Shown: positions 46,925-61,919, counted from the first letter of the stretch. The stretch is DNA of 64,000 nt from Vicinamibacterales bacterium (GCA_038918905.1 JBCKZS010000010.1:638-64637), one strand, 5' to 3'. The notes: a model not told the origin generated them from the letters alone. A program made the numbers and translations.

Positions 46925-48598
46925 TCAACTCTGCCTGAAGAGCCGCATCCCTGCCTCTTTCTCGAATGCCGTACAAATCAGCTTGAGCCGTTCCTGCCGG
47001 AACTTCTTGAATGCACCAACGACTCCGCGTTCCCAGACGCCAGCGTCCTGCCCAGCTGGAAGCAGATGGCTCCTCATGACCTGGAGAAAGCGCTGGCGGC
47101 CCTCGTCACGATATTCGGCTAGATACTTGCGCGGCAGGCGCTTGCCGATCTTGAGATTGTCTCGCGCCACCAAGAAGCAGATATTGCACAGGCTGTTGTA
47201 GACCTTCGCCGACACATGGTGCCGGAGCTGTCCTTGAGGAAAGATGTGATGCCGATGTTTTCGATTTGAGTGGCTGATGATGGCCTTGTCCAATGGGATT
47301 GGCTCGCCATCCTCGAGATACCGAGGAGCGCGAGCCGCCAGCAGACAGAAGAATGCCCGCGCCCTGGCGCTGCGTGAAGCATAGTCGGCCGACTGAATAT
47401 CCAGTACCGGGTCGAGACGGTCACGAAAGACGAAGCGAACCCTTGAACCCCGTGCAAGGGACGCGAAGAACTTCGCGTCGCCCACAATGTTGCGGTGATA
47501 ACCCCGGCCTGTATACCGCTGCCCCACACCCGTTGCCCAAAACCACTTGCGGATTTCCGCGGCCTGGTACCGATCGGGCGGACCATGGTGGTGAAAGAAA
47601 AATACCGCAAGGGTCGCCAGCATGTTTGCGGACGGCAGGTACGACTCGTCGTGGACGGGGAAGCGATTGTGCAAGTGGTCCACGGCAGCGCAGAACGCGT
47701 TCTGGTACTTGTGCCAGAGGTTCTGGAATCTCTTCTTTTCCGACTCGTCTTTCTGAATGAGTTTTGACCAGCGCCGAGCCATCGCCTCCAGCTTCGGTGG
47801 ATCTCCATCAAGGGCCTGGCTCTCAGCGACCAGGTTGAAGCCCATTAGGATCGGATCGATCGCACTCAAGGCAAGAACAGTATCCCGGATCTTCTGACGA
47901 AGTTCTTGCGCCATCGACCGCACGTCAAGTTCTCCCATTAATGCGATGGCACGGTCCGCCGACGTAATTCGCATGCCTTGCGAATTGACCCGAATGAACA
48001 CCTCGCCGATCTCATCCAACGTCGCCGACCGTACGGTCACAACCGGAATGGGATACGTCAAGAAGCGCTGACGGCACTTGCCCACTCTCATCAAGAACCA
48101 GTCCGGCTTACTGGACATTCTCCTCTTCCAGTCAGGCGCCAAGATATCTGGAAGCGGAACGAACTCACGATCAACGGGCTTGCGGTAAACGATGCGATCG
48201 TGGTCGTCACCCTCCGGATCGGGAGTGACAACAAAACACAGCCGCCTGAAGTCAATCTCCCGTCCTGCGTCGTTCTTCCGAACCTGACCTTCAAACGCCT
48301 GGTAGATCACCGATAGTCGTTGCTGGCCATCGATGACAAACCACACCACGCGATTCCCGCTATCAAACGATGGGAGCACGTCTGCGGACTGTCGAATCAG
48401 GTTGGCTGACCGGCGATCCATCTCCCAGAGGAACAGCGACCCAATCGGCATGGCTCGGTAGATACTGTCCAGAAGCTTCGCCGCGCGACGGGCATCCCAG
48501 ACGAAGTTGCGCTGTAATTTTGGCACCGCGAATTTTCGTGCCTGCAAATCCGAGCGCAGCTTCCTGATGGACACTGTAGCGAGCTTGGGAGGCTTCAT
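46925..48598 (-). CDS. GmrSD-like type IV (modification-dependent) restriction enzyme, DUF262 + DUF1524
   Basis: FAVPKLQRNFVW..., VIDGQQRLSVIYQ (DGQQR). C-terminal HNH-like RKHRHHIFPQGQL. Start at MKPPKLATV. Confidence 0.8.
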   Translation of the reverse strand: MKPPKLATVSIRKLRSDLQARKFAVPKLQRNFVWDARRAAKLLDSIYRAMPIGSLFLWEMDRRSANLIRQSADVLPSFDSGNRVVWFVIDGQQRLSVIYQAFEGQVRKNDAGREIDFRRLCFVVTPDPEGDDHDRIVYRKPVDREFVPLPDILAPDWKRRMSSKPDWFLMRVGKCRQRFLTYPIPVVTVRSATLDEIGEVFIRVNSQGMRITSADRAIALMGELDVRSMAQELRQKIRDTVLALSAIDPILMGFNLVAESQALDGDPPKLEAMARRWSKLIQKDESEKKRFQNLWHKYQNAFCAAVDHLHNRFPVHDESYLPSANMLATLAVFFFHHHGPPDRYQAAEIRKWFWATGVGQRYTGRGYHRNIVGDAKFFASLARGSRVRFVFRDRLDPVLDIQSADYASRSARARAFFCLLAARAPRYLEDGEPIPLDKAIISHSNRKHRHHIFPQGQLRHHVSAKVYNSLCNICFLVARDNLKIGKRLPRKYLAEYRDEGRQRFLQVMRSHLLPAGQDAGVWERGVVGAFKKFRQERLKLICTAFEKEAGMRLFRQS

Positions 48599-48861
48599 TT
48601 TTTTTGTAACTCCCCATCTTGACTCAGGTCGCGAACGCCAGATTCTGGCATGACCACGGCCGAAGCGCCAGACTTTGGGCTGATCGAGACGGTCGTCACA
48701 TTCCCGATCACGCGTCGGCCGAGGCGGGTCCAGAGCGGTTGAATCCAGGGCGGGTCGCGAGAGTCCTTGATCTGGGCTTGAGGATCGAGGTCGTTTAGAA
48801 AAGGAGACGCGGCGCCATCGCCTGTCTTCCACGTCGTGCCCTGCCTCACGCCGTCGCCCAT
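48595..48861 (-). CDS. hypothetical 88-aa ORF bridging hsdR and the GmrSD-like gene
   Basis: Overlaps the hsdR stop by 16 nt, and its TGA overlaps the GmrSD ATG (ATGA). No motif recognised. Confidence 0.35.
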
Positions 48862-59163: not shown

Positions 59164-60310
59164 TCACGGCTTCCTCCGGCGAGCGCGTGGCGTCTCTTGC
59201 GATTCTCCGGAAAGCTCTGCCTCGATCTCCTCCACCGTCGGCAGGATCCCCTCCAGTTCCTTCGGCAGCGACTTGACGAGGCTCGTCTCCCACTGTGACA
59301 CGCCGATCGGCTTCTTGAGGTCGCGCAGCGCGTACTCCACCACGACCGCGTTCTTCGAGCGGCAGAGCAGCAGCCCGATGGTGGGCTTGTCGTCCGGATG
59401 GCGCAGCAGGTCGTCGGCCGCCGAGAGATAGAGATTCAGCTTCCCCACGAATGCCGGGGCGAACGCCACGGCCTTCAGCTCGACCACCACGTAGCAGCGC
59501 AGCTTCAAGTGGTAGAAGAGCAGGGTCCACCAGGAAGTCCTGGTCGCCGACCTCCAGCAGCACCTGCCTGCCCACGAAGGCGAAGCCGCTGCCCAGTTCC
59601 AGCAGAAAGCGCTGCACGTGATCGACGAGCGCCTCCTCCACCTCGCGCTCGCGGCGCGGGTCGGCGGTACCGAGGAAGTCGAACAGATAGGGGTCCTTGA
59701 AGACCTGGGCAGCGAGGTCGGACTCGCCGGGCGGCAGCGCCGCCGCGAAGTTGGTCAGCGCCTTGCCCTGGCGGTCGCGGGCGCGGCCCTGGATCTGGAG
59801 CACAAGGATGTTGTGCGACCAGCCCCGCTCGATGGCCTGGCGCGCGTACCAGAGGCGCTCGGCGGGGTCGTCGAGCTTCTCCAGCAGCGCGATGTGGTGG
59901 TACCAGGGCAATCGTGCAAGAGGCTCTTGCACGATTGCCCGCTCCGGCCAGGCCGCGGCGAACGCGCGCATGTACTTGAGGTTGCGCGGCGAGAAACCCT
60001 TCATGTCGGGGAACGCCTCGCGCAGGTCCGCGGCCAGGCGGTCGATCACCTTCGCGCCCCAGCCCGCGCTCTCCTGCCGCGCCAGGATCATCCGTCCGAT
60101 GTCCCAGTAGAGCAGGACCATCGCCGCGTTGGCGGACAGGACGACGCGCAGGCGCTCCTGCTGGATGCGCGACTTGATCGCGGCCAACGCGTCGGCGTAG
60201 TCCTGCGGGAGGGCAGTCCTGGCCGGCGCGACCGGAAAGCGCGCTTCGGGCCGGGCGCGGCCCCGCGCAAGCCGGATGTCGGCTTCCGGGCGGGAGCGCT
60301 TACGAGCCAT
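59164..60310 (-). pseudogene. YhcG/DUF1016-type PD-(D/E)XK nuclease, +1 frameshift
   Basis: N-part ...GSGFAFVGRQVLLEVGDQDFLVD and C-part LLFYHLKLRCYVVVELKAVAF...LSAADDLLRHPDDKPTIGLLLC are in different frames. There is an extra C in GACCCTG (59521..59527). Confidence 0.8.
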
Positions 60311-61919
60311 ACCCAAGCTCCTTCAGGTTGGCGGCGATGGCGGCATCCAGCTTCGCGGCCTCGGCCTGCTGCTCGCGCAGCGCCGCGGTGAGCCGCTTCA
60401 TCTTCTCGTCGAACGGCTCGCCGTCGTCCTCCTGCGCCTCGGCACCAACGTAGCGGCCTGGCGTGAGCACGTGGCCGTGTTTGCGCACGTCCTCCAGCAA
60501 CGCGCTCTTGCAGAAGCCGGCGATGTCCGCGTACTCGCCCGCGTCCTTCTCGCCGCCTGCCTGACCGGCAGGCAGGCGCCAGGCGTGGTAGGTGGCGGCG
60601 ATGCGGGCGATGTCCTCGTCCGTCAGCTCGCGGTGGGTGCGGTCCACGAGCGGTCCGAGCTTGCGGGCATCGATGAAGAGCACGTGGCCGCGGCGGTCAC
60701 GGAACTTGCCTGCCTGACCGGCAGGCAGGCCGTTCTTGCGGTCGCGCGCGAGGAACCAGAGGCACGCGGGGATCTGCGTCGAATAGAAGAGTTGGCCCGG
60801 CAGCGCGACCATGCAGTCCACGAGCTCGGCCTCGATCAGGCTCTTGCGGATTTCGCCCTCGCCGGACTGGTTCGACGACATCGAGCCGTTGGCGAGCACG
60901 AAGCCAGCCACGCCCGCTGGCGCCAAGTGGTGAACGATGTGCTGCACCCAGGCGAAGTTCGCGTTGCCCGATGGCGGCACGCCGTACTGCCAGCGCTTGT
61001 CGTCGCGCAGCCGCTCGCCGCCCCAGTCGGAGATGTTGAACGGCGGATTGGCGAGGATGAAGTCGGCCTTGAGATCGGGGTGCCGATCGTTGTGGAACGT
61101 GTCGCCATGTCCGATCTGGCCGTCGATGCCGCGGATGGCGAGGTTCATCTTCGCCAACCGCCACGTGGTGTAGTTCGACTCCTGGCCGTAAATCGAGATA
61201 TCTGGCCTGTGCTTGCTTCCATTCCCATTGCCGGACGCGTGCGCGCGGATGAACTCCACCGACTGCACGAACATGCCAGAGGATCCGCAGCAGGGGTCGT
61301 AGACACGGCCCCGATACGGCTCAAGCATCTCAACCAGCAGCTTGACCACGCAGCGCGGTGTGTAGAACTCGCCCCCCTTCTTGCCCTCGGCGCTCGCGAA
61401 CTGCGAGAGGAAATACTCGTAGACCCGACCGAGTTCGTCCCTGGCGCGGCTGGCCTCGTCGCCGACCCTGATGTTGCTGATGAGGTCGATCACCTGGCCA
61501 AGCCGCTCCTTGTCGAGCGCCGGACGCGCATAGTCCTTGGGCAACACGCTCTTGAGCGCCGGATTGTCGCGCTCGATCCCGGCCATCGCGTCGTCCACCA
61601 GCCGGCCGATGGTGGGTTGCCTGGCCTGCGCTTTCAGATGCGTCCAGCGCGCCTCGGGCGGCACCCAGAAGATGCTGTGGGCACGATACTCGTCCGGGTC
61701 TTCGGGGTCGGCGCCCCTGGACTGCTCGGTCACAAGCGCGGCGTGCCGCTCCTCGAAAGCGTCGGAGATGTATTTCAGGAAGAGCAGGCCAAGGACGACG
61801 TGCTTGTACTCGGCGGCGTCCATGCTGCCACGCAGCGCGTCGGCCATCTGCCAAAGCCTGGCTTCGTAGCCAACGGTGGCGGCGTGGTCGTCAGTGGTCT
61901 TTGACTTCTTCCCGGGCAA
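60300..61919 (-). CDS. hsdM: type I restriction enzyme M (methyltransferase) subunit
   Basis: GGAGG + TTG start giving (M)PGKKSKTT...[32 protein letters not shown]. Motif [11 protein letters not shown]. Motif IV NPPF. Confidence 0.93.

Follow-up and report, generated by a model that had tools for sequence, protein, structure and literature searches.

A type I restriction-modification operon hosting four embedded cargo modules and one appended module, with gene-end stubs at their junctions

A stretch of 64,000 nt from a Vicinamibacterales bacterium (GCA_038918905.1, JBCKZS010000010.1:638-64637), hereafter the window, contains between positions 46925 and 61919 a type I restriction-modification (R-M) operon with four cargo modules embedded in it and a fifth appended. 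On the minus strand, which carries every feature described below, the order is hsdM, a YhcG/PDC-S02 nuclease gene with one frameshift, an hsdM 3' stub, hsdS, SIR2 and HerA, followed by an hsdR 5' stub, the DUF6978 and DUF1828/1829 genes (PDC-M24), a second hsdR 5' stub, a DUF4143 ATPase gene (PDC-S01), hsdR, orf88 and a GmrSD-like gene. This is the gene order of the original prediction, and Pfam together with PADLOC, the latter proposed there as a check, bears out all the gene identities. Six cargo genes, co-oriented with their hosts, thus sit between hsdM and hsdR of one R-M system. The YhcG nuclease is the module between hsdM and hsdS, and SIR2-HerA, DUF6978 + DUF1828/1829 and the DUF4143 ATPase are the three modules between hsdS and hsdR. 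The GmrSD-like gene adjoins hsdR downstream; it lies outside the hsd genes and is therefore appended, not embedded.

As judged by their content, hsdM, hsdS and hsdR form an intact type I R-M system. The methyltransferase gene hsdM (60300-61919) has a TTG start with a GGAGG Shine-Dalgarno sequence, and its product, also recognized by PADLOC, combines an N6_Mtase domain (Pfam, 1.3e-104) with the N-terminal HsdM_N domain (6e-28); the motifs NPPF and DPCCGSSGM can be read in the translation. The specificity subunit HsdS (57841-59103) is matched by Methylase_S in two stretches (Pfam, 2e-39), consistent with two target-recognition domains, and over its full length by Specificity_I (PADLOC, 2e-115). 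The restriction subunit HsdR (48846-52001) is full-length, with HSDR_N, SWI2_SNF2/ResIII and T1RH-like_C all matched (Pfam) and a REase_I match spanning residues 1-1047 (PADLOC, E = 0). Its motifs include D...ELK in the HSDR_N nuclease and GSGKS and DEAH in the SF2 motor, which is followed by the T1RH-like C-terminal domain.

The first cargo gene encodes a YhcG/DUF1016 PD-(D/E)xK nuclease (about 59164-60310; Pfam, PADLOC), and its ATG sits within the hsdM stop region (11-nt overlap, GGGTATGGC). The frameshift noted by the original prediction is borne out in the sequence: an additional C (+1) within the run 59523-59525 places YhcG_C positions 2-62 in one frame and 63-156 in another, owing to which the PDC-S02 match (PADLOC, 1e-97) is partial. 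This could mean a dead module or an erroneous base call; contig L120 carries an intact homologue in the same layout. SIR2 (56696-57844; Pfam, PADLOC 3.6e-65), with the motifs GAGxS, NYD and KLHGS, overlaps hsdS in an ATGA, and its neighbor HerA (54942-56699; Pfam, PADLOC 2.5e-134), whose start overlaps SIR2, has an intact Walker A motif (GSTGTGKS) and a Walker B motif, also read in the translation. The DUF6978 protein (54347-54796; Pfam, PADLOC PDC-M24A 7e-59) is followed, through an ATGA overlap, by the DUF1828/DUF1829 protein (53586-54350; Pfam, PADLOC PDC-M24B 2e-106). The DUF4143 AAA ATPase (51998-53317; Pfam, PADLOC PDC-S01 2e-165) carries the Walker A motif GPRQSGKTT, and its stop overlaps the hsdR ATG (ATGA). 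PDC-S01, PDC-S02 and PDC-M24, all matched here as candidate defences, are PADLOC models built from embedded genes (Payne et al., 2024, bioRxiv 10.1101/2024.01.29.577857); in one study, neither the PDC-S01 nor the PDC-S02 representatives protected E. coli B against T7, T5 or T4 (10.1101/2024.09.26.614923). The appended GmrSD-like protein (DUF262 family; 46925-48598; Pfam, PADLOC) is a candidate type IV restriction enzyme with a GmrSD_N domain (Pfam, 3e-22) and VIDGQQR in its translation; its C-terminus has no Pfam DUF1524 match at E <= 0.01, and an HRHH...N-rich stretch was seen by eye only. Between it and hsdR lies orf88 (48595-48861), whose start precedes the hsdR stop by 16 nt and whose end forms an ATGA with the GmrSD start. 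It has no family match in a profile search, shows weak codon periodicity and is not conserved among the related loci compared, and is a doubtful gene that might act as a bridge or be open by chance.

Three remnants of hsd genes separate these modules. The hsdM 3' stub (59093-59167), found by repeat comparison, is a 24-codon mini-ORF whose GTG start, preceded by a GGAGGA Shine-Dalgarno sequence, shares a GTGA with the stop of the intact YhcG frame and whose own stop overlaps the hsdS ATG by 11 nt. The reuse of GGGTATGGC at the hsdM/yhcG and hsdM-stub/hsdS junctions, pointed out previously, is present as an 11-nt overlap at both, within a 68-nt direct repeat of 76% identity. L120 has a parallel ATGA arrangement at its YhcG-stop/stub-start, an overlap conserved with the window at 61% protein identity. 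The two hsdR 5' stubs are likewise real by nucleotide identity to the 5' end of the resident hsdR. Stub 1 (54796-54945; segment 54877-54934 is 81% identical to 51933-51990) comprises approximately codons 1-34 of an hsdR and then 15 unrelated codons, and forms an open 49-codon ORF that starts in an ATGA with the HerA stop and ends in a TGATG with the DUF6978 start. Stub 2 (53304-53450; 53385-53442 is 90% identical to 51933-51990, and the stub 88% to the resident hsdR 5' end) comprises approximately codons 1-33 and is an open 48-codon ORF ending 14 nt inside the start of the DUF4143 ORF. Every one of the three stub ORFs therefore bridges neighboring genes. The sole clear break in the coupling chain is a 135-nt, AT-richer non-coding spacer (53451-53585), which contains TTCCTGC-type repeats at 10-nt spacing (53465-53529) and two ACTCCAATT copies. 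A consensus promoter scan called none in this spacer, which could contain an internal promoter and might represent a former promoter or operator region of hsdR.

All six ATGA stop/start overlaps listed by the original prediction are present (57841-57844, 56696-56699, 54942-54945, 54347-54350, 51998-52001 and 48595-48598). Its statement that the cargo is wired into the R-M reading frames holds, in that the cargo lies inside the hsd operon, on the same strand, and is tied to it through stop/start overlaps; the wiring even exceeds what was first seen, because the stub ORFs themselves bridge neighboring genes. The description of one translationally coupled super-operon is right about embedding, common direction and overlap, but is overstated because yhcG is frameshifted, orf88 is doubtful and the hsd genes do not enclose the GmrSD-like gene. 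Of the six ATGA junctions, two also fail to join two established genes: 54942-54945 joins HerA to the 49-codon hsdR-stub ORF, and 48595-48598 has orf88 as its upstream partner. ATGA is the commonest gene overlap in bacteria generally, and in this hsdR family overlaps of this kind are the norm where hsdR begins, 37 of 79 loci having an NTGA there; such overlaps are therefore not special to this locus. The sigma-70-like promoter scan gives a single match, CTGTCA and TAGAAT with a 16-nt spacer (61949-61976), a consensus match only, located ~30 nt upstream of the hsdM start. No convincing terminators are found between the modules; the 15 terminator-like matches (10.6 +/- 3.7 expected) are all weak-stemmed and all inside genes.

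The locus was compared with 80 related loci whose HsdR is 75-85% identical and which span Chloroflexota, Acidobacteriota, Binatia, Proteobacteria, Planctomycetota and others; judging from these sequences, the type I system belongs to a lineage that moves widely between phyla. Embedding is the norm in this family: the hsdS-hsdR interval, whose comparison had been suggested, measures 1 kb or more in 51 of 72 loci and 5 kb or more in 10 of 72. The 218 cargo ORFs of the related loci fall into 120 clusters, and those sampled are toxin-antitoxin (TA)- or defence-like (MNT/HEPN, deaminase-HATPase_c_4, Abi_C, TIR, AAA_21, Fic, RhuM, Macro, PIN, KwaB-like). SIR2-HerA is nested after hsdS also in L036, L040 and L129. 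Contig L129 has the order hsdS-SIR2-HerA-stub-DUF4143-hsdR, and L120 the order hsdM-yhcG-hsdM stub-hsdS ... stub-DUF4143-hsdR, both as in the window. Close homologues of the DUF4143 gene are directly followed by an hsdR start in 25 of 76 cases and have no adjacent hsdR in about 50; among the hsd-linked loci with enough upstream flank, a stub precedes the DUF4143 gene in 9 of 20.

The stubs recur in a restricted form, as hsdR 5' or hsdM 3' ends. hsdR fragments between hsdS and hsdR are found in 12 of the 80 loci, all in the same orientation, beginning at residues 1-10 and ending at 25-112; the sole exception to the 5'-end rule, a weak C-terminal match in L079, is probably a cargo protein with a shared domain. 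An extra hsdM C-terminal copy lies downstream of a complete hsdM in at least six loci, and also in L120. Stub breakpoints vary between codons 25 and 158, meaning that there is no single recombination site. When compared with ~85 hsdR 5' ends, a stub has the hsdR of its own locus as best match in 6 of 21 cases and among the top three in 10 of 21; the stubs located closest to hsdR are among those most similar to it (L147, 95%; window stub 2, 88%). Stub-to-gene identities are only 80-95%, and what looks like duplication in place could instead have arisen by gene conversion or by sequence import from a close relative.

The arrangement itself is known. Guilt-by-embedding, applied to type I R-M, BREX, DISARM and Hma loci (Payne, Hughes, Fineran and Jackson, 2024), has already described embedding in type I R-M loci, where 96.7% of the embedded defence genes are co-oriented and GmrSD-like proteins are frequent partners (Payne et al., 2024). 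The original prediction, which was aware of no described case this densely nested and coupled, is therefore not upheld on this point, and related loci carry equal or larger cargo (~8.3 kb in L036, ~7.0 kb in the window); the interpretation was right in kind but not new. The window resembles the guilt-by-embedding loci in its cargo, located between hsd genes on the same strand, and in three modules that match their models. It differs in the duplicated gene-end stubs, which a term search of that paper did not find; nor did it find bridge ORFs or an account of how embedding arises. Loci with pseudogenes were left out of that survey (Payne et al., 2024), and a literature search found the stubs nowhere described. 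These leftover gene-end copies at each insertion point suggest how modules enter and stay expressed. A second defence inside a type I R-M operon is also seen in EcoprrI-PrrC and in the EPEC RptR-R-M-DarTG2 island, where DarTG2 lies between hsdS and hsdR, at a site called a potential recombination hotspot, and expression comes from a promoter at the head of the island (PMC12255303). However, each of these has one cargo module, whereas the window has four embedded and one appended, with stubs between. Like the SIR2-HerA anti-phage system, the window has SIR2 and HerA genes that adjoin and overlap, match the PADLOC models strongly and encode intact motifs, but here the pair is nested after hsdS, with the HerA stop overlapping the start codon of an hsdR remnant.

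The most probable origin (about 0.7) is serial duplicative insertion into an intact type I system at two conserved junctions, with the stubs kept as translational bridges. As the comparison of loci suggests, cargo would have been inserted one cassette at a time, either at the hsdM-stop/hsdS-start overlap or within the first 25-150 codons of hsdR, and every insertion would duplicate the junction segment, leaving the working gene whole and a short stub across the cargo. Exactly this layout is expected from a single crossover that integrates a circular fragment made of cargo plus junction, and hsdR-anchored recombination with an illegitimate second join would have the same outcome. The mosaic composition of the locus is in keeping with this origin, GC3 being 0.72-0.78 in hsdS-SIR2-HerA, 0.87-0.88 in hsdM, DUF4143 and hsdR, and 0.68 in GmrSD. 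The array resembles integron cassette arrays in its co-oriented promoterless cargo, repeated junctions and expression from one end. In integrons the short attI1 ORF supplies translation initiation to cassettes, and in both cases a short junction ORF could pass ribosomes to the next gene. By contrast, the repeated junctions of the window derive from the genes of the host operon itself and end at variable points, and neither an integrase/recombinase domain (in array genes or scanned flank ORFs) nor attI or attC was found, which together argue for homologous or illegitimate rather than site-specific recombination. Transcription would start upstream of hsdM and perhaps a second time within the spacer 53451-53585. 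Translation would be handed from gene to gene through overlapping stop/start codons, and the retained stubs would serve as short bridging ORFs from which ribosomes move on to the following cargo gene. From their families, the type I enzyme is expected to cut unmodified foreign DNA and the GmrSD-like enzyme modified DNA, SIR2-HerA would deplete NAD+ as an abortive-infection backstop, and the three PDC modules are candidate defences.

It is considerably less likely that the locus is an ordinary defence island, in which a tolerant hsd locus acts as a "genomic sink," an idea raised by Payne et al. (2024) themselves, the stubs are debris of decayed or replaced type I systems, and the overlaps reflect compact high-GC spacing with no functional link between cargo and R-M. 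Decayed hsdR genes with internal deletions exist in L123 and L154, and the cargo families also occur outside hsd loci, as the DUF4143 homologues illustrate. Several stubs elsewhere (L002, L011, L066, L067) contain stop codons, so that bridging is not universal and stubs may be mere scars. Such debris would not readily account for hsdS-hsdR fragments that, the weak L079 match excepted, are all 5' ends in one orientation, for matches to the hsdR of the same locus far above chance, or for the YhcG-stop/stub-start overlap kept between the window and L120. Stub ORFs also end at cargo starts more often than control frames: the stop falls between -10 and +30 nt relative to the start of the following cargo gene in 10 of 17 stub frames, against 4 of 17 and 3 of 17 in the other two frames. 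This statistic is weakened by the way cargo starts were assigned in related loci, namely to the earliest start codon in the longest ORF.

A slightly fainter possibility is that the cargo proteins belong to the type I enzyme itself, as accessory subunits or as its sensors, with the coupling setting the subunit ratios of one physical complex. The precedent, cited by Payne et al. (2024), is PrrC, which EcoprrI keeps inactive as long as no phage inhibits the enzyme. PrrC depends functionally on its R-M enzyme, a dependence that the window cargo would share on this reading. The tight DUF4143-hsdR stop/start coupling in 25 loci and the reuse of the hsdS start context by YhcG point in the same direction, and the lack of protection by standalone PDC-S01 and PDC-S02 in one test would fit dependence on an R-M partner (10.1101/2024.09.26.614923). 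However, most occurrences of these cargo families are not next to hsd genes, and the extreme diversity at these positions (120 clusters) argues against specific partnerships in general. SIR2-HerA, moreover, works alone. Compared with serial duplicative insertion, an assembly artefact joining type I loci from different genomes or copies through conserved hsdR 5' and hsdM 3' sequence is very improbable. In its favor are the mosaic composition, joints that lie at conserved sequence, and exact look-ups of HsdR and HerA, in which neither protein has a record. A repeat-mediated chimera, however, would yield a seamless gene and not a truncated stub that runs on into unrelated sequence. The same layouts of stub plus cargo are present in independent assemblies, including the complete chromosomes L059, L072, L073 and L077, and the separate metagenome contigs L120 and L129 reproduce the junctions of the window.

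Pfam and PADLOC annotation of the minus strand, from 61919 down to 46925, resolves an uninterrupted series of co-oriented genes whose order and content agree with the original prediction. The series opens with hsdM (60300-61919), the gene of a YhcG/DUF1016 PD-(D/E)xK nuclease (59093-60310; PDC-S02) and hsdS (57841-59103). It continues with SIR2 (56696-57844), HerA (54942-56699), a DUF6978 gene (54347-54796; PDC-M24A), a DUF1828/DUF1829 gene (53586-54350; PDC-M24B) and a DUF4143 AAA ATPase gene (51998-53317; PDC-S01), and closes with hsdR (48846-52001) and a GmrSD_N (DUF262) gene (46925-48598). 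The translations of hsdM, hsdS and hsdR are all full length, with catalytic motifs present. The frameshift suspected in yhcG is confirmed, in that YhcG_C domain positions 1-62 lie in one frame and 63-156 in another, the gene being split by one additional C within the run at 59523-59525. A further minus-strand ORF, orf88 (48595-48861), is doubtful as a gene; its codon-position bias is weak, and neither a family match nor conservation in the related loci examined was found. GC3 is 0.87-0.88 in hsdM, the DUF4143 gene and hsdR, 0.72-0.78 across hsdS-SIR2-HerA, 0.82 in PDC-M24 and 0.68 in the GmrSD gene, and the locus is therefore a mosaic. Searches of solved structures returned nothing for the DUF6978 and DUF1828/1829 proteins and generic AAA matches only for the DUF4143 protein.

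The six predicted ATGA stop/start overlaps all lie where they were expected. The junctions hsdM/yhcG and hsdM stub/hsdS (the stub being a copy of the hsdM 3' end), which were predicted to reuse the same sequence, are both 11-nt overlaps with GGGTATGGC, and both fall within a 68-nt direct repeat (family D2). Among the relatives, 37 of 79 loci have an NTGA in which the hsdR start overlaps the stop of the preceding gene, irrespective of which gene that is; the second hsdR codon mostly begins with A, so that the hsdR 5' end itself supplies the TGA in the +1 frame. Scanning the locus by methods that are weak for high-GC genomes gave a single promoter-like match, upstream of hsdM, and no credible terminator between its genes. 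The sole clear break in the coupling chain is the spacer at 53451-53585, which is AT-richer and contains four TTCCTGC-type repeats with 10-nt spacing (53465-53529; family D3) and, at ~53540-53575, two copies of ACTCCAATT ahead of the second hsdR stub. This spacer may be an operator/promoter, perhaps the promoter region of an hsdR that formerly followed PDC-M24; neither it nor its repeats have a DNA-level counterpart beside PDC-M24 in other loci.

The proposal of a nested, coupled super-operon is partly supported: its core idea was correct in kind, yet the arrangement had already been described. Defence genes are embedded inside Hma, BREX, DISARM and type I R-M loci with 96.7% co-orientation, for which co-regulation has been suggested, and the PDC models were built from such embedded genes (Payne et al., 10.1101/2024.01.29.577857). 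DarTG2 likewise sits between hsdS and hsdR, at a site termed a potential recombination hotspot, and is driven by a repressed promoter that heads the island (PMC12255303). Three of the five modules in the window correspond to PDC models originally defined from such embedding, and the locus belongs to a known, well-populated kind of arrangement.

The supposedly unmatched density of the nesting does not survive comparison with relatives. Scanning one genome per species yielded 80 loci (L001-L080) whose HsdR is 75-85% identical to that of the window, from MAGs of at least 10 phyla and including Chloroflexota, Acidobacteriota, Binatia, Gemmatimonadota, Planctomycetota, Nitrospirota and several proteobacterial classes; this type I R-M lineage therefore moves widely across phyla. 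Their order is hsdM, hsdS, variable DNA, hsdR. Of the 72 loci in which the hsdS-hsdR interval could be measured, 51 have 1 kb or more there and 10 have 5 kb or more; between hsdM and hsdS, 16 of 65 loci have 1 kb or more. With intervals of 5.8 and 1.2 kb, respectively, the window is close to the top of this continuum and not extreme, since one relative (L036) carries ~8.3 kb; an exceptionally dense locus is thus ruled out.

The cargo of these relatives is diverse, the 218 plus-strand ORFs falling into 120 clusters. The commonest hsdM-hsdS insert is a HEPN-type (NTase_sub_bind) gene, which is apparently paired with a nucleotidyltransferase (MNT/HEPN) in the 16 loci that carry it (e.g., L036:2752-3171, L048:6340-7863). 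Other sampled clusters include deaminase-HATPase_c_4, Schlafen-like, Abi_C, 8xMP, M78 peptidase with DUF4411, KwaB-like, AAA_21 ATPase, TIR, DUF3644, Macro, Fic, RhuM-Fic and Phd-PIN genes. SIR2-HerA also follows hsdS in L036 and L040, and PDC-M24 also lies upstream of hsdR in L013, L056 and L071/L072. The last two, respectively a MAG from the Steroidobacteraceae and the complete Candidatus Desulfobacillus denitrificans genome, have identical feature layouts and identical percent identities to the window proteins, reflecting either a recent between-class transfer or a binning error. In two metagenome loci DUF4143 is immediately preceded by a DUF6978 homologue of 56% identity (L104:148-2043, L105:1706-3601); tblastn found no DUF1828/1829 match there, and PDC-M24A may therefore not always travel with its partner.

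The two predicted hsdR 5' stubs are present in the window, the first 30-odd codons being copied upstream of hsdR (family D1) with 81% and 90% identity to hsdR over the 58 nt compared. One or two additional hsdR fragments lie between hsdS and hsdR in 12 of the 80 related loci, and every one begins at residues 1-10, ends at residues 25-112 and is on the operon strand. The only other match in this interval, in L079, is a weak one to the C-terminal domain of HsdR, at 32% identity, and is probably a cargo protein with the same domain. An additional hsdM C-terminal copy follows complete hsdM in at least six loci, and L017 has two. The cargo adjoining the stubs ranges over PDC-S01, PDC-S02/Mrr-type nuclease, RhuM-Fic, Abi_C, Phd-PIN, Schlafen-like and deaminase-HATPase_c_4 genes and one of unknown type.

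A metagenome scan with the window DUF4143 protein added 80 loci at 71-96% identity. The DUF4143 stop leads directly into the hsdR start in 25 of 76 loci, and an hsdR 5' stub lies upstream of DUF4143 in 9 of the 20 hsd-linked loci with the required upstream flank of at least 600 nt. L129 reads hsdM-hsdS-SIR2-HerA-stub-DUF4143-hsdR, i.e., the window minus PDC-M24, and L120 combines hsdM-yhcG-hsdM 3' stub-hsdS, with yhcG intact, and stub-DUF4143-hsdR. Elsewhere DUF4143 is followed merely by a short hsdR 5' piece (L110, L121, L158, L159), and in L122:475-3310 by hsdR codons 1-143 and a second DUF4143 paralogue (52% identity), a cargo-stub-cargo array of one family. Two loci (L123:7305-7451, L154:3615-4697) have, directly after DUF4143, an hsdR with a large internal deletion that fuses its 5' end to its last 30-80 codons.

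The layout is invariant: either full hsdM, cargo and an hsdM 3' copy, or an hsdR 5' copy, cargo and full hsdR, so that direct repeats of the junction segment flank the cargo. At the border with the working gene, cargo and gene share a neat stop/start overlap; the opposite border is a ragged break of variable position. From these layouts we infer insertion at two conserved gene junctions, which would duplicate each junction segment. A circle of cargo plus a piece of the junction, integrating by a single crossover, would give this layout, and so would recombination that uses the conserved gene as its anchor and makes its second join illegitimately. The similarity data support duplication of resident sequence: when ~85 hsdR 5' ends are compared, the hsdR of the same locus ranks first for the stub in 6 of 21 cases and third or better in 10 of 21. 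Stubs nearest to hsdR are among the most similar (L147, 95%; stub 2 of the window, 88%; L143, 85%), and distal ones such as stub 1 of the window are closer to other lineages, a pattern consistent with serial accretion in which the cassette beside hsdR is the newest. A single fixed, site-specific insertion point is rejected because the breakpoints vary from codon 25 to codon 158. Mis-assembly is rejected as the main explanation because the same junctions and layouts recur in independent assemblies, including L120, L129 and complete chromosomes (L059, L072, L073, L077). A tRNA scan of the window found no tRNA genes, leaving no sign of a tRNA-targeted island.

The broader reading, to which we give a probability of little more than one in three, is that type I R-M operons of this lineage serve as recombinase-free cassette platforms. 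Cargo would move as a unit with a short hsdR 5' or hsdM 3' copy, which would act as a homology patch for insertion and later for loss. The copied gene end would then be a translated bridge ORF, plugging the cargo into the translation chain of the operon, and the whole would constitute a general route by which defence genes embed in, and swap among, R-M loci.

The stubs of the window are indeed open reading frames that bridge neighbouring genes on the minus strand. Stub 1 (54796-54945) shares an ATGA with the HerA stop at its start and a TGATG with the DUF6978 start at its end, and stub 2 (53304-53450) ends 14 nt inside the start of the DUF4143 ORF. The hsdM stub (59093-59167) begins at a GTG that follows GGAGGA and overlaps the YhcG stop of the intact frame, and its end lies in the 11 nt that it shares with hsdS; in L120, where YhcG is 61% identical, YhcG stop and stub start likewise overlap, as ATGA. 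Of 17 intact stubs, 10 have the stop of the stub frame between -10 and +30 nt relative to the start of the following cargo gene (4 and 3 in the control frames), which suggests that stubs are retained as translational adaptors. The count is limited by the crude assignment of cargo starts outside the window, and several stubs of other loci contain stop codons.

Why and how embedding happens was left open by Payne et al. (10.1101/2024.01.29.577857), and the embedding of defence genes in other defence operons is now used for immune-system discovery. A term search of the available literature, this preprint included, returned no description of duplicated or truncated hsd gene ends or of the route of cargo entry. 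The recurrent junction stubs and bridge ORFs are thus a feature for which no description was found, and they make the question testable, the window locus and its relatives offering a concrete answer to how embedding happens. Remnants may persist by maintaining cargo translation. If this account of insertion and retention holds, the near-universal co-orientation of embedded genes would be explained, stubs would provide a sequence signature for cassette boundaries and new cargo, and cassettes would be predicted to be gained and lost by stub-stub recombination.

Judged by the families concerned, the type I enzyme would restrict unmodified DNA and SIR2-HerA would deplete NAD+ upon infection. The GmrSD-like enzyme would target modified DNA, as BrxU does in complementing BREX (10.1101/2024.01.29.577857). 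PDC-M24, PDC-S01 and PDC-S02 are candidate defences. Representatives of PDC-S01 and PDC-S02 gave no protection against T7, T5 and T4 in E. coli B (10.1101/2024.09.26.614923), and these proteins may therefore depend on their R-M partner, like PrrC, be directed at other phages, or have no defence role at all. Both are widespread, unvalidated candidates that are here tightly coupled to hsdR and hsdS, and testing them together with the R-M partner may succeed where the standalone test gave no protection.

About 1 kb upstream of hsdM, a 123-aa ORF on the minus strand (62989-63360) has as its sole match the C-terminal Transposase_20 domain of the IS110 family, and is likely a transposase fragment left by an IS. 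Downstream and convergent with the GmrSD-like gene lies a plus-strand ORF of 296 aa (45857-46747) whose only family match is a short N-terminal one to DUF3553. Two long hydrolase-like ORFs that weakly match Peptidase_C25 and GDSL-lipase families (42867-45943, minus strand) lie between the island and pnp and may belong to the variable region; past them follow the core genes pnp, truB and a DHH-family gene.
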